64,000 nt of DNA from Anaerolineae bacterium (GTDB lineage Bacteria > Chloroflexota > Anaerolineae > B4-G1 > DUEL01). How positions within the stretch are numbered: the stretch's first letter is position 1; each line of letters starts with the position of its first letter. The notes under the pieces are model-generated. The model was given only the letters and a program-made list of their open reading frames with translations, was not told where the DNA came from and did no database searches. Where the stretch lies: the NCBI GenBank assembly GCA_034434635.1, contig DAOTYX010000184.1, positions 3,880 to 67,879 on the forward strand, written 5' to 3'. The position numbers and the translations under genes are program-made. This document shows positions 6,284 through 51,801 of the stretch, piece after piece.

Positions 6284-7636
6284 ATGTCCGAGAACAGCGA
6301 GCAACTGCAACGGAAAGCGCGTGAACATGTTATCTTCCCGGCGGTGACGCCGGCTCAGGTGGCCGAACTGGGCCCTATCGTCTTCACCCGCGGGGAGGGC
6401 ATCTACCTGTGGGACGCCGCCGGCAAGCGGTACATGGATTCGATGTCCAGTGGTGTCTACGCGGTGCACATCGGCTACGGGCGGGAGGAAATGGCCCGCG
6501 TGATGTACGATCAGGCGCGGACCATGCATTACTTCTGTCCTTACGGTTACATCTCTCCACCGCCGATCGGCTTCGCCGAGAAACTGGCCCAGTTGCTGCC
6601 CGGCGAGATGCCCTACGTCTTCTTCACCCAGGATGGCAGCGAGGCGGTGGAGTCGGCCTTCAAACTGGCCAGACAGTGGGCTTATCACAAGGGTTATCCG
6701 CGCAAGTACAAGATCATCTCCCGACAGCGCGCCTATCACGGTTCGACCATGGGGGCGCTGGCCGCCACGGGCACGATGGCCCCGTTGCGCCAGATCATGG
6801 AACCCCTGCCGCCTGGCTACTGTTTCGCCCCTCCACCGTATTGCTACCGTTGCCCCTTCGGCCTGAAATACCCCGCCTGCGACGTGCGCTGCGTCGAGGC
6901 GATTCGCCAGATGATCGAGTTCGAGGGCCCCGATTCGGTGGTGGCAGTCATCGGCGAGGTGGTGATGGCCGCTGGCGGCTGTATCGTCCCGCCACCAGAG
7001 TACTGGCCGCGCCTGCGCGACATCTGCTCCCGCTACGGTGTGTTGCTGATTGACGATGAGGTGGTCTGCGGTTTCGGGCGCACTGGCAGGATGTTCGCCA
7101 TCGAGCACTTCGGGGTAGAACCGGACATCGTGGTTATGGCCAAGGGGATCACCTCCGGCTACGCCCCGCTAGGGGCCACCGCCTGTCGGCGCTTCATCGT
7201 CGAGGAGATGCCGGTCTTCATGCACGTTCACACCTACAACAACCACCCTGTCACCACCGCTGTGGGGCTGCGCAATGTGGAGATCATCGAGCGGGAAGGG
7301 CTGGCGCAGAACGCTGCTGAGGTGGGTGACTACCTGCTGGATGGGCTGCGCTCCCTCTCCGGCCACCCCAGCGTGGGGGACGTGCGCGGGTTGGGACTGC
7401 TGACCGCCATCGAGTTCGTGCAGGACAAGGACAGCCGCGCCCGTTTCGACGAGAAGGCGGGCTTCTGCAACCGAATCATGGCTCTGGCGCTGGAGCAGGG
7501 GTTGATCCTGCGCCAGGTGGAGGACATCATCGAGTTCTGCCCGCCGCTGGTGGTCACCCGTAGCGAGGTGGACGAGATGATCCGCATCACCGACGCAGCC
7601 ATCACCCAGGCGGAGCAGGAGTTTGGCCTGCGGTGA
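6284..7636 (+). CDS. Class-III PLP aminotransferase (omega-transaminase / beta-alanine-pyruvate type), paralog B
   Basis: 450 aa; [13 protein letters not shown] motif, MAKGITSG Lys region. Confidence 0.9.
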
Positions 7637-16864: not shown

Positions 16865-16897
16865 GAGGTGCGACGCATGACCCATGCGTCGCACCTC
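16865..16897 (+). promoter_or_regulatory. Intra-operonic 15-bp-stem hairpin between the binding-protein gene and the ATPase gene (GACGCAT...ATGCGTC core, related to the REP family)
   Basis: gaggtgcgacgcatg-acc-catgcgtcgcacctc. Typical position for differential-expression hairpins in ABC operons. Confidence 0.5.
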
Positions 16898-43432: not shown

Positions 43433-43466
43433 GGGTCGGGCAGTAAGGGCCTATCCGAATGACCCT

Positions 43467-43499
43467 GTAACCGACGCATCCCTATGCGTTGGCGGGCGG
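43467..43499 (+). repeat. Solitary REP-like palindromic element (GTAACCGACGCATCCCTATGCGTTGGCGGGCGG), same family as the array at 49.8 kb
   Basis: Direct sequence identity to the array unit core. Confidence 0.7.
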
Positions 43500-43620
43500 T
43501 TCTTGGGAGACCGCCCTCTGGCGCTTCGGATGGGCGGTAGGAGCGCCGGCCGGCCTGTGTACCTGGTGATGGAGCGCCAGGTGTGTCGTGACCGTGTCTT
43601 CCGTCACCTCGAGCCGTGCG

Positions 43621-49194: not shown

Positions 49195-49653
49195 TTACTT
49201 GATCGCCGGGCCTGCCGTCCAATCGTAGCCGATGGTTGGGTCGTCGTGAGGGATGCGCCCCTCGTCCGAACCGTCGTACTCGTGAGAGACGATGTAGAAA
49301 ACGTGAGCGGGTCCCTGCAGCACGCGGTAGCCATGCGCCACGCCGGGCGGAATCTTCAGCAGGACTGGCGGGTGGCCATCCCCCATCAGCAACTCCTGGA
49401 TCTGGCCGTAGGTGGGCGACTCCGGACGGGTGTCGTAGAGCGCGGCCTTGACCGTGCCGCAGGCCACGTACCACCAGTCGGTCTGCCGGTGGTGGACATG
49501 CCAGGCCTTGGCGGCCCCGGTGTGGGTCATCGTGTGGCTCCACTGGCCGAAGCCTTCCGGGAAGATGGGGTCGCTGGCGCGCAGGACCTCGCGGAAGAAG
49601 CCCCGTTCGTCGCTGTGGGTGACCAGTTGCTTGATTTCGACGCCGTGAATCAT
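49195..49653 (-). CDS. rfbC: dTDP-4-dehydrorhamnose 3,5-epimerase (RmlC cupin)
   Basis: MIHGVEIKQL...ERGFFRE...HGYRVL motifs. True start is ATG at 49653 after GGAGG; the longer track ORF (to 49968) reads through the repeat array. Confidence 0.85.
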   Translation of the reverse strand: MIHGVEIKQLVTHSDERGFFREVLRASDPIFPEGFGQWSHTMTHTGAAKAWHVHHRQTDWWYVACGTVKAALYDTRPESPTYGQIQELLMGDGHPPVLLKIPPGVAHGYRVLQGPAHVFYIVSHEYDGSDEGRIPHDDPTIGYDWTAGPAIK

Positions 49654-49778
49654 GGGCAGCACCTCCTGAGATGGGCGACAGAGGAGATTATAGCGCAAGT
49701 GGGGCGGCTGTCCAGTCGCCTTGAGGGACTTTTTGTCTGCTGTGGGCGGTGGGGTATAATCAACACCTGTCGGGCTAT

Positions 49779-50325
49779 GGTTACCCGTAGCCGACGCATC
49801 CCGATGCGTTGGCGGGGCGGCATAGGATGCCGCCCCTACGGTAAGCCCCGTAGCCGACGCATCCCTATGCGTCGGCGGGGCGGCATCGGGATGCTGCCCT
49901 ACGGTGGTCACCCGTAGCCGACGCATCCCTATGCGTCGGCGCATCCCTATGCGTCGGCAGGGCGGCATAGGGGCGGGCCGGGATGGCGGACGGCATAGGG
50001 ATGCCGCCCTATGGTGGTCACCCGTAGCCGACGCATCCCTATGCGTCGGCGCATCCCTATGCGTCGGCGCATCCCGATGCGTCGGCAGGGCGGCATAGGG
50101 GCGGGCCGGGATGGCGGGGCGGCATCGGGATGCCGCCTTACGGTGGTCACCCGTAGCCGACGCATCCCTATGCGTCGGCGCATCCTATGCGTCGGCGGGC
50201 GGCGTTGGGATGGCGGGCGGCATCGGGATGCCGCCCTACGGTGGTCACCCGTAGCCGACGCATCCCGATGCGTCGGCGCATCCCGATGCGTCGGCGGGGC
50301 GGCATCGGGATGCCGCCCCTACGGC
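49779..50325. repeat. BIME/REP-like array: about 6 composite units (60-130 bp) of two palindrome types
   Basis: Units share CCGTAG...CTACGG flanks and are separated by GGTGGTCA linkers. P1 is GCCGACGCATCCC(T/G)ATGCGTCGGC, in 1-3 copies per unit. P2 is GGGCGGCAT(C/A)GGGATGCCGCCC. Confidence 0.85.
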
Positions 50326-50412
50326 GTCGGCGGGCGGTGTTGGGGGTTGCCCTGCGATGATGCGGGCATGCTCTGAGTGGTCAAGATGTGCGGGGAAAAC
50401 AGGGGGAAGCGA

Positions 50413-51621
50413 ATGGGGTATTTGACGCATCTGGAATGCTCCTGCTGCGGCGCGGTGTACGATGCCGACGAGCGGCATAACCTGTGCCCAGTCTGCGACC
50501 GTCCCTTGCTGGCGCGCTACGACCTGGCGGCAGTCGCCGCGCGCCCGCGCCGGGCGGTCATCGGCTCCGAGCCGACGCTCTGGCGTTACCGGGCGCTGCT
50601 GCCGGTGCGCGACTCGCGTCACGAGGTCAGCCTGGGGGAAGGGTTCACTCCGCTCCTGCAAGCCCGGCGGCTGGGGGAGGCGCTGGGACTCTCCCATCTG
50701 TACATCAAGGAAGAAAGCCTCAATCCCACCGGCTCCTTCAAGGCCCGTGGGATGGCGGTGGCCATCTCCCGCGCCCGCGAGTTGGGCGTGAGGGAGGTGG
50801 TCATCCCTTCGGCGGGGAACGCTGCTGGCGCGGCCGCCGCCTATGCAGCCCGTGCTGGCATGCGGGTCCACGTCTTTATGCCCCGCGACGTTCCCGCGCC
50901 TTTCCTCCAGGAGTGCCGCGCCCTGGGGGCGGAGGTGACGCTGGTGGACGGGCTGATCGGCGACTGTGGCCGGGAGGCGCGGCGGGTCGCTGCTGCCTCC
51001 GGTGCGTTCGACCTCTCGACGCTCAGGGAACCGTACCGCCTGGAGGGGAAAAAGACCATGGGGTACGAACTGGCCGAGCAGTTCGGCTGGTGGCTGCCCG
51101 ACGTCATCATCTACCCCACCGGCGGCGGTACCGGCCTGGTGGGGATGTGGAAAGCGTTCGCAGAGATGGCCGCCTTGGGCTGGATTGGCGAGGGGCGCCC
51201 GCGGATGGTCGCCGTGCAGGCGGAGGGGTGCGCCCCCATCGTCCGTGCCTTTCACGCTGGCGAAGAGACCGCCACGCCGTGGGCCGATGCGCATACCGTG
51301 GCGGCGGGACTGCGCGTCCCTTCTGCCGTGGGCGACCGGCTGATCCTGCAGGCGCTGCGCCAGAGCGGCGGCACGGCGGTCGCCGTCAGCGACGCGGCGC
51401 TGCTGGCCGCGCAGGGCCGTCTCTCCCGTCTGGAGGGGGTCTTCGCCTGCCCGGAGGGCGGGGCGGCCCTGGCGGCGCTGGAGGTGCTGTTGGCCCAGGG
51501 TTGGCTCGCCCCCGATGAGCGCATCGTCCTTTTCAATACCGGCAGCGGGCTGAAGTACCCGGACTGTGGGGGGCAGGAAGTGGGCGGCGCTGGGACGACG
51601 CCCTGCGGTGGTCACCCGTAG
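50413..51621 (+). CDS. thrC: Threonine synthase
   Basis: N-terminal Cys4 zinc-ribbon (LECSCCG...CPVCD), PLP-fold-II SFKARG Lys motif. ATG 50413 after AGGGGGAAG. The last 7 codons (TPCGGHP*) are supplied by a REP copy. Confidence 0.9.
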   Translation: MGYLTHLECSCCGAVYDADERHNLCPVCDRPLLARYDLAAVAARPRRAVIGSEPTLWRYRALLPVRDSRHEVSLGEGFTPLLQARRLGEALGLSHLYIKEESLNPTGSFKARGMAVAISRARELGVREVVIPSAGNAAGAAAAYAARAGMRVHVFMPRDVPAPFLQECRALGAEVTLVDGLIGDCGREARRVAAASGAFDLSTLREPYRLEGKKTMGYELAEQFGWWLPDVIIYPTGGGTGLVGMWKAFAEMAALGWIGEGRPRMVAVQAEGCAPIVRAFHAGEETATPWADAHTVAAGLRVPSAVGDRLILQALRQSGGTAVAVSDAALLAAQGRLSRLEGVFACPEGGAALAALEVLLAQGWLAPDERIVLFNTGSGLKYPDCGGQEVGGAGTTPCGGHP

Positions 51622-51650
51622 CCGACGCATCCCTATGCGTCGGCGGGTGG
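51606..51650 (+). repeat. REP-like element copy overlapping the thrC stop
   Basis: GGTGGTCACCCGTAGCCGACGCATCCCTATGCGTCGGCGGG is identical to the array unit. Confidence 0.8.
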
Positions 51651-51652
51651 GG

Positions 51653-51688
51653 CTTTGTAGGACAACTGCGAGCAGTTGTCCTACAAAG
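51653..51688 (+). terminator. 17-bp perfect-stem hairpin (CTTTGTAGGACAACTGC...GCAGTTGTCCTACAAAG) downstream of thrC
   Basis: Direct observation; no strong U-tract. Confidence 0.5.
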
Positions 51689-51801
51689 CGGCCGGCCCCA
51701 CTGGCTCCCGACGGTTCTGGGGCACACCTCCTCAGATTGAGGTCTTGTCACCGTCGGGGAGGTGTGGTAGAATAACGCCACTCTCTTGCTGAGGAGCGCT
51801 C

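Follow-up and report, generated by a model that had tools for sequence, protein, structure and literature searches.

In Escherichia coli, bacterial interspersed mosaic elements (BIMEs) combine two types of repetitive extragenic palindromic (REP) sequence in alternating orientation, with short variable linkers, in extragenic DNA and in variable copy number. Within the GTAG superfamily of REPs head-to-head dimers are favoured and clusters of dimers are reiterated together with flanking DNA, the tags are described as unpaired, and the Chloroflexi are represented by the GTAG-23 repeats of Thermomicrobium roseum and Roseiflexus castenholzii, which occur in large blocks (Di Nocera, De Gregorio & Rocco 2013, PMC3733652); in Anabaena variabilis, GTAG-15 dimers are embedded in long palindromes (PMC3733652). 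REP doublets forming hairpins (REPINs) consist of two related inverted REPs with a short spacer, which behave as one hairpin-like mobile unit of high copy number (Bertels & Rainey 2011, PMC3116915, PMC3337134), and pneumococcal BOX, with the structure boxA-boxB(n)-boxC (PMC3049150), and BrickBuilt of Porphyromonas gingivalis (PMC4596501) are known examples of repeats built from modules, the internal one of which varies. Here we describe an array of palindromes located between an rmlC-like gene and thrC in a stretch of 64,000 nucleotides (the window) of contig DAOTYX010000184.1 from an Anaerolineae bacterium, and compare it with these systems. [quoted passage not shown]

The array comprises six units at window positions 49785-50324, followed by a partial unit that extends to about 50356. 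Each unit runs from CCGTAG through one to three copies of a palindrome, P1, and one good copy of a second palindrome, P2, to CTACGG, and the basic unit including its linker measures 63-64 bp. P1, CCGACGCAT-CCCT-ATGCGTCGG, has a stem of 9-10 bp and a 4-nt loop, and its additional copies are built from an 18-bp sub-repeat, CGCATCCCTATGCGTCGG. The six GTAG heads are found at 49787, 49850, 49914, 50024, 50153 and 50251, with successive spacings of 63, 64, 110, 129 and 98 bp, and the units contain, in order, 1, 1, 2, 3, 2 and 2 copies of P1. Allowing up to three mismatches, P1 is matched 13 times and P2 nine times, against 0.00 matches of either in shuffled sequence, and the two stand in opposite orientation with variable linkers between them, as the mosaic of two palindromes proposed in the first-pass annotation would require. 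All units lie on the plus strand. Unit 1 (49785-49841) consists of CCGTAG, a single P1 variant, a P2 variant and CTACGG, and unit 2 (49848-49904) is the canonical 57-bp doublet, which gives the best match to the covariance model described below (75 bits). In unit 3 (49912-50014) two P1 copies, a GC linker hairpin and a P2 with the CATAGGGATG loop are closed by CTATGG; this unit is missing in L001 (L-numbered contigs are fetched related stretches). Unit 4 (50022-50143) has three P1 copies, a GC linker, P2 and TTACGG; unit 5 (50151-50241) has two P1 copies, the second of which is one C short and so gives a 17-bp period, a degenerate P2-like hairpin, P2 and CTACGG; and unit 6 (50249-50324) has two P1 copies with CCCG loops, P2 and CTACGG. 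Six units bounded by CCGTAG and CTACGG had been proposed, and the number is correct, but the closing motif is degenerate in units 3 and 4 and the partial unit must be added. Additional degenerate GC hairpins occur in units 3-5, and the linkers that recur within the array are TGGTCACCC and such GC hairpins.

The partial terminal unit (50325-50356, plus strand) is composed of the 3' half of P1 (CGTCGGC), a degenerate P2 (GGGCGGTGTTGGGGGTTGCCC) and CTGCG. This segment had been considered as a retained right outer arm, a candidate we rejected, as the same module of CGTCGGC plus P2 is also present in other arrays. On the left side, a putative decayed outer arm, GGGCTATGG TTAC at 49772-49784 on the plus strand, may be recognized by a weak direct comparison with GGGCCTATCCGAATGAC of a solitary element in the window. 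Two mechanically called open reading frames (ORFs), 49195-49968 on the minus strand and 50011-50376 on the plus strand, cross the array and are likely to be spurious. A 16-mer formed by array linker and head, GGTGGTCACCCGTAGC, recurs exactly once, at window 7549-7564 inside an aminotransferase-like ORF (6284-7636), with 0.00 recurrences expected from shuffled sequence.

When the two palindromes are written with their tags, P1 reads GTAG-CCGAC-GCATCCCNATGC-GTCGG and the reverse complement of P2 reads GTAG-GGGCG-GCATCCCNATGC-CGCCC. The central 12 nt, GCATCCCNATGC, are therefore shared and only the outer stem differs, which makes P2 an inverted copy of P1 that has diverged, and the unit a doublet whose GTAG tags face outwards. 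At the sequence level, the unit is thus a head-to-head dimer of GTAG REPs in the terms of Di Nocera et al., or a REPIN in those of Bertels and Rainey. The tag GTAG stands at the window P1 copies and CTAC 3' of P2, with GTAA before P1 in the solitary element mentioned above. Since CCGTA and TACGG close the unit, each single strand is predicted to fold into a Y-shaped, REPIN-like structure with a closing stem of 5 bp, a P1 stem of 10 bp, which includes the G of GTAG, and a P2 stem of 9 bp. Folded as single units, the doublets give z-scores from -5 to -6; unit 2, as DNA, reaches -25.3 kcal/mol (z=-5.2) and unit 6 reaches -37.9 kcal/mol (z=-6.3). The loops of P1 and P2 are complementary, CATCCCTATG pairing with CATAGGGATG and CATCCCGATG with CATCGGGATG, in agreement with the reverse complementarity noted at first, and the alternative pairings between hairpins that had been thought possible do appear, as P1:P2 alternatives, in the fold of a predicted 652-nt thrC leader (z=-9.9).

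The proposed pairing was assessed on 43 distinct units, using as control the same units with the 3' partners slid by 1-3 columns. Paired cells amounted to 94%, against 22-42% after sliding, and compensatory changes (AU/GC/CG) were found at the outer four pairs of P2. Likewise, the last base of the tag covaries with the nucleotide that follows P1, the pair being A-T in 20 units and G-C in 18, and the GTA of the tag pairs with the TAC of the partner hairpin. Pairing within P1 is uninformative either way, given that P1 was fixed by how the copies were found.

Several features are shared with the GTAG REP superfamily: short, GC-rich extragenic stem-loops with GTAG at one end, in many copies, arranged as head-to-head dimers with GTAG outside and in large tandem clusters of dimers, some units reaching into genes. 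The stem and loop sequences differ, in contrast, from those described. In the family studied here, pairing and covariation involve the G of the tag, GTAA is the tag of the largest subfamily, arrays often run head-to-tail, an arrangement rare in the survey of PMC3733652, no linked REP-associated tyrosine transposase (RAYT) was found in the DNA sampled, and the doublet of the relatives is enclosed by inverted ends in an element that duplicates TWA. The same TWA duplication and the same negative search for a cognate RAYT set the doublet apart from REPINs, with which it shares two related inverted hairpins, a short spacer and high copy number; moreover, each half is a perfect hairpin, giving the Y fold instead of one long hairpin. 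With E. coli BIMEs the likeness is one of form, namely the alternation of P1 (plus) and inverted P2, variable linkers, extragenic position and variable copy number. There is no sequence relationship to BIMEs, the window has no consensus site for integration host factor (IHF), one hairpin is repeated as 18-bp sub-repeats, and the units also occur as target-duplicating MITEs. The GTAG-15 repeats of Anabaena variabilis offer a parallel for a GTAG REP doublet placed centrally in a longer conserved palindrome, differing in the sequence of the arms and in that no target duplication was reported there. The first-pass annotation had regarded a comparable family as new to Chloroflexi; GTAG REPs had already been catalogued in this phylum (PMC3733652), and what stands of that claim is that neither the P1/P2 family nor such repeats in Anaerolineae-type genomes were found in the searchable literature.

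We scanned the entire window, filters off, with a covariance model derived from the 43 distinct units and obtained significant matches at three loci only: 43445-43541, the array and 51596-51672. The first is a solitary full-length element of 91 bp (43447-43537, plus strand; 46.6 bits, E=2.7e-12), formed by GTAA-P1 and a diverged P2, with outer inverted arms GGGCCTATCCGAA / TTCGGATGGGCGG and an imperfect pair of flanks, TAA (43444-43446) and TAG (43538-43540); it begins 15 bp past the stop codon of the upstream gene. The third is a composite at the 3' end of thrC (51582-51704, plus strand; 33.3 bits, E=3.6e-8), in which a P2-like hairpin, CTGCGG, TGGTCACCC, GTAG, P1 and a split P2-like stem follow one another, the split stem (GTGGGGC...GCCCCAC) holding a nested palindrome. 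The solitary P1 copies that had been reported at 43467 and 51606 are thus both present, at the corrected positions 43470-43493 and 51621-51644. A third copy, announced as a variant at 16865, is not supported as a member of the family: the hairpin at 16871-16891 has in common with P1 just an 8-bp stem, CGACGCAT, it is matched by the covariance model with E=0.23, and no second copy was found in 1.5 Mb of related DNA. In its full extent this hairpin, located between two genes at 16866-16896, has a 15-bp stem, GAGGTGCGACGCATG-ACC-CATGCGTCGCACCTC, with TCCGAA upstream, and could be either a decayed relative of P1 or a plain terminator-like hairpin.

Beyond the window, the P1 core CGACGCATCCCNATGCGTCG was found in at least 109 stretches among one-genome-per-species contigs. 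Among the matches listed, most come from the metagenome-assembled genome (MAG) 'Anaerolineae bacterium H23_299' (DAOTYA01), with more than 100 loci, three other MAGs are assigned to Anaerolineae, Anaerolineales or Thermoflexales, and a few isolated matches in unrelated phyla look like chance. The pattern of GTAG plus P1 was further detected in 97 stretches of Joint Genome Institute (JGI) metagenomes, at loci of 53-70% GC, whereas no viral contig matched the P1 pattern and no plasmid matched the 90-bp consensus by BLAST. The fetched DNA contains more than 300 P1 copies; in a rough ORF test 55 of 58 copies were intergenic. Strand bias, which could have suggested an RNA function, was not clear (19 sense vs 13 antisense). 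Since copies are dispersed in the window, in MAGs and in metagenomes, P1 is not unique to this locus, and the mapping and counting of its core, which had been proposed as a check, support a genome-dispersed family.

These data bear on the explanation that no dispersed family exists and that the tract merely reflects a tandem duplication confined to this locus, or an artefact of assembly. In its favor, short-read contigs break in the array and the linkers are locus-specific, but hundreds of copies exist elsewhere, two further loci are present in the window itself, and five assemblies yielded the array independently, each time between identical flanks. The chances of this explanation are close to negligible; as to uniqueness it is refuted, and it concerns at present the exact unit count alone.

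The form taken by the element in relatives is informative regarding its mobility. In the H23_299 MAG the core is found inside a uniform element of about 90 bp, GTGCCTATCCGAAAAACGTAAC-P1-GTATAA-P2-TTGTACGGTTTTTCGGATAGGCTC, and about 100 copies in relatives, as well as the window element at 43447-43537, display terminal inverted repeats of about 20 bp, the ends of the relatives' element being GWGCCTATCCGAAAAAC. Identical 3-bp flanks were observed in 82 of 101 copies (TTA/TTA in 46 and TAA/TAA in 36), with just three discordant TTA/TAA pairs, in a palindromic target context, YTWAR. The type of flank is independent of the end variant and of the orientation of the element, which excludes both an end encoded by the element and a 2-bp TA duplication; the latter, of the IS630 type, was rejected because elements of one orientation and one end variant are found with TTA as well as with TAA flanks. 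In 30 copies not used for ascertainment the best-conserved part was the inverted ends. A greater conservation of P1 than of the termini, which had been entertained, found no support, as the ends are at least as conserved in those copies, and the invariance of P1 across lineages is partly an artefact of having searched the copies with P1. Inverted ends and a true 3-bp TWA duplication together argue for the mechanism of a DDE-type MITE rather than for a Y1 enzyme such as a RAYT. A 3-bp duplication of the TWA type is typical of the IS5/Harbinger group and of Tourist-type MITEs, and enzymes of the IS200/IS605 type would not be expected to duplicate a TWA target in this way. The similarity to IS5, PIF-Harbinger and Tourist-type elements comprises the TTA/TAA duplication, a length of 3 bp being documented for that type (PMC12730594), inverted ends of about 20 bp and the palindromic YTWAR context. 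Two differences must be noted: no parent insertion sequence (IS) was found in the DNA sampled, and the internal hairpins, not the termini alone, are conserved across lineages.

In MAG DAOTYA01, nine of 101 copies stand head-to-tail with the next whole MITE copy, one TWA being common to both (L011, L036, L083, three in L097, L098, L102 and L103). As the end of the element plus the duplication recreates a YTWAR target, self-targeted insertion could seed arrays. Some other copies are incomplete: an arms-only palindrome, GCCTATCCGAAAAACCGTTACGTTTTTCGGATAGG, without either hairpin, was found at L150 5522-5560, and four copies (L014, L036, L069 and L102) have P1 without P2; these may be either deletion derivatives or 'empty' precursors. 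At L020 2236-2750 the P1 of a MITE is split by an insert of about 165 bp flanked by a 9-bp duplication (CCGACGCAT), and a tandem array of about 240 bp with a 14-bp repeat (GGATGTGCCCRCC) follows; L046 and L068 have parts of this arrangement in common with it.

Other GTAG-tagged palindromes accompany P1 and P2. The palindrome nested in the composite at the thrC 3' end, P3 (CTTTGTAGGACAACTGC GAG CAGTTGTCCTACAAAG, 51653-51688), has a perfect 17-bp stem and in the window sits at the apex of a P2-like stem. Its family, TGTAGGRCAACTGC-NNN-GCAGTTGYCCTACA with GTAG/CTAC at both ends, has some 50 additional loci among the relatives fetched, L006, L012, L022, L029, L031, L033, L036, L049, L052, L053 and L057 among others; in DAOTYA01 it is often located at contig ends, beside longer shared sequence. 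A further GTAG-tagged palindrome, P4 (GTAGGGGCGCAGCG-NN-CGCTGCGCCCC), occurs at 16 fetched loci and not in the window; it is present at L125 1787-2100 and 12742-13160, where it is interleaved with P1/P2 in the arrays, and at L030, L094, L180 and others, and it appears to resemble the back-translation of published intragenic GTAG-23 peptides of Roseiflexus.

Such a variety of palindromes is relevant to the explanation that we face a true REP/BIME-RAYT system, in which a single-copy Y1 (HUH) transposase recognizing GTAG would disperse the doublets and build the clusters, the inverted-repeat form of the relatives arising by secondary capture when a doublet inserted at the apex of a pre-existing palindromic MITE. 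GTAG plus palindrome, head-to-head doublets and reiterated clusters all match the GTAG REP superfamily (PMC3733652). The explanation is further favored by the co-occurrence of three families of GTAG-tagged palindromes, the location of all 11 window sites of the type 'GTAG plus perfect hairpin' within the three element loci, the presence of the same core with unrelated outer arms, the position of P3 at the apex of a P2-like hairpin and the single arms-only palindrome. Against it stand, besides the TWA duplication, the pairing and covariation of the G of GTAG and the GTAA tag of the largest family. The search for an enzyme also speaks against it: all six-frame open segments were covered in 1.55 Mb, comprising the window and 210 loci with more than 300 copies, none of it a complete genome, and no RAYT candidate was obtained in this DNA by phmmer with E. 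coli RayT, nor any by scans for the HUH...Y motif in a strict and in a relaxed expression, while inverted P1 pairs have housekeeping genes between them. The IHF consensus WATCAANNNNTTR, an E. coli-type sequence that may not be the one of this phylum, has no site in the whole window. These negatives, even when taken from DNA that includes no complete genome, lower the REP/RAYT claim, and a system of this kind is, in our view, unlikely to explain the tract. Accordingly, from the BIME/REP interpretation offered in the first-pass annotation we retain the dispersed family, the BIME-like form of the cluster and the variable count, and find no support, in the DNA sampled, for a parallel with RAYT targeting, for an IHF site in the window or for the supposed variant at 16865.

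Regarding the growth of the cluster, arrays of three heads or more numbered at least 24 in the fetched DNA, with periods of 29-141 bp, the shortest (29-32 bp) being composed of head plus P1 only. About 10 nt located 5' of each GTAG are near-constant within one array and different between arrays, a pattern that repeated insertion would not give and that points to local amplification of a locus-specific unit. Variation in unit number between strains or assemblies, which had been put forward as a check, was observed at the rmlC-thrC locus: L001 has five units, without window unit 3, the window has six, and L212 has eight, with a two-unit higher-order repeat. In L002, L003 and L211 the contigs break inside this array. 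In L213, whose ThrC is 92% identical, the intergenic region is 300 bp long and keeps both promoters without any array; it was rejected as a clean empty site, since divergence between the two intergenic regions is too great for the limits of an insertion to be placed. Within the array of L212 (2240-2893) lies entirely a 217-aa 'gene' of the source pipeline, without Pfam match, which is likely spurious. In L001 (12440-20168), compared with the window from 52831 onwards, ThrC is identical and the upstream region matches, with divergence downstream of an epimerase gene, past which L001 has an ABC-transporter block and an IS630-like (DDE_3) gene, whereas L002, L003, L211 and L212 follow the window; the switch is either a strain-level rearrangement or a chimeric contig. 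A comparison with BOX and BrickBuilt seems appropriate here, since they too are non-coding, dispersed and intergenic, with an internal tandem module variable in number and length variation between strains, and are transcribed with their neighbors, co-transcription being in our case predicted only. The present family differs in having a doublet of GTAG hairpins as its repeated module, in the decay or absence of terminal modules at this locus, and in phylum and GC content.

The genes on both sides define the setting of the array. To its left, the rmlC-like gene (49195-49653, minus strand; a dTDP-sugar isomerase of 152 aa) was assigned from the identical contig L001, where it was called as a gene with PF00908, its ribosome-binding site and ATG being read directly, and is preceded by a predicted sigma-70-like promoter, TGGACA-16-TATAAT (49687-49714, minus strand; 11/12 in a consensus scan), conserved in L213. 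A second predicted sigma-70-like promoter, TTGTCT-16-TATAAT (49733-49760, plus strand; 10/12), faces thrC, and its TTTG...TATAAT block also aligns with L213. The array starts about 12-25 bp 3' of the -10 box of this promoter and is therefore predicted to be part of the thrC leader. The gene thrC (50413-51621, plus strand; threonine synthase of 402 aa, PF00291) is itself altered at its 3' end, where the final 16 or so codons and the stop codon consist of repeat-derived sequence. The resulting C-terminal tail of 16 residues, GQEVGGAGTTPCGGHP (51571-51621), is encoded by the P2-like hairpin, CTGCGG and TGGTCACCC of the composite element and is missing from all nine aligned homologues, which have 383-390 aa; the stop codon TAG (51619-51621) is the TAG of the GTAG head, confirming the overlap between P1 and the thrC stop that had been noticed at the outset. 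In L213 ThrC ends in ...DCGVV*, and a P2-like hairpin, ...CCGCCTAC, is also present in the 3' flank. ThrC homologues of 75-80% identity come from sources named Thermoflexia, Anaerolineales or Anaerolineae, an affiliation that assigns the window to this section of the Chloroflexota.

Due to this location the array might be taken for a dedicated cis-regulatory leader RNA of thrC, such as an attenuator, a riboswitch or an array of small RNAs. It does lie between the predicted promoter and thrC, the 652-nt leader folds strongly, and the extra P1 copies contain G-U pairs on the sense strand. Nevertheless, the array is missing in the 92% identical relative, which keeps the promoter, its unit number varies (5, 6, 8), the same units are found beside unrelated genes in both orientations, and it matches no Rfam family, a single tRNA being the only feature of the window to reach a gathering score. 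We consider a dedicated leader of this kind very improbable.

Several observations weigh against our interpretation of the tract as an expanded cluster of a MITE-like element. The units of the window array have no outer inverted repeats beyond the 5-6 bp of CCGTAG/CTACGG and no target duplication. At least three GTAG-headed palindromes (P1/P2, P3 and P4), together with arrays of head plus P1 only, fit REP/RAYT better, and the same core also bears other outer arms, for example CTAGCAGCCTGTCGGAG... or ACAATACGGTTCAG..., which implies that the core may have a mobility or function of its own. An autonomous parent IS was not found in the sampled DNA: no pair of inverted ends placed 0.3-3.5 kb apart encloses a transposase, only housekeeping genes, and the IS630-like gene on L001 was rejected as parent since it has no matching ends. 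The unit counts all derive from short-read assemblies, and both the promoter and the co-transcription by which the array would form a long structured thrC leader are predictions.

Balancing this evidence, we still favor the expanded MITE-like cluster. New loci would be reached by trans-mobilisation of the element as a MITE, and the mover, judging by the TWA duplication of 3 bp, may be a DDE transposase of the IS5/Harbinger type. At the rmlC-thrC locus a single insertion just 3' of the thrC promoter may have been followed by amplification in situ, through replication slippage or unequal recombination among units and among the 18-bp P1 sub-repeats. The array would then be essentially selfish or neutral DNA, at most modulatory for the thrC mRNA. 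A more far-reaching and quite improbable alternative is that the P1/P2 doublet is an independently mobile element of the REPIN type, served by an HUH/Y1-like (or other) enzyme that recognizes GTAG hairpins, inserting by preference into the apices of existing palindromes, repeatedly colonizing unrelated inverted-repeat MITEs and hitch-hiking on their DDE transposases. If true, the doublet would be a parasite on two levels that joins REPs to MITEs, and no REPIN-type system would have been worked out before it outside Proteobacteria.

On the practical side, the arrays break short-read assemblies and produce spurious gene calls, and their hypervariability could make them strain markers in metagenomes. 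They also remodel host genes, the predicted thrC leader being lengthened to about 650 nt, compared with about 150 nt before, and ThrC having acquired a tail of 16 residues with a repeat-encoded stop codon. The presence of one conserved doublet both in BIME-like arrays and in TWA-duplicating MITEs is mildly unusual and bears on the relation between REPs and MITEs, and with this family the Anaerolineae/Thermoflexia-type Chloroflexota are added to the lineages known for palindromic repeats of the GTAG type.

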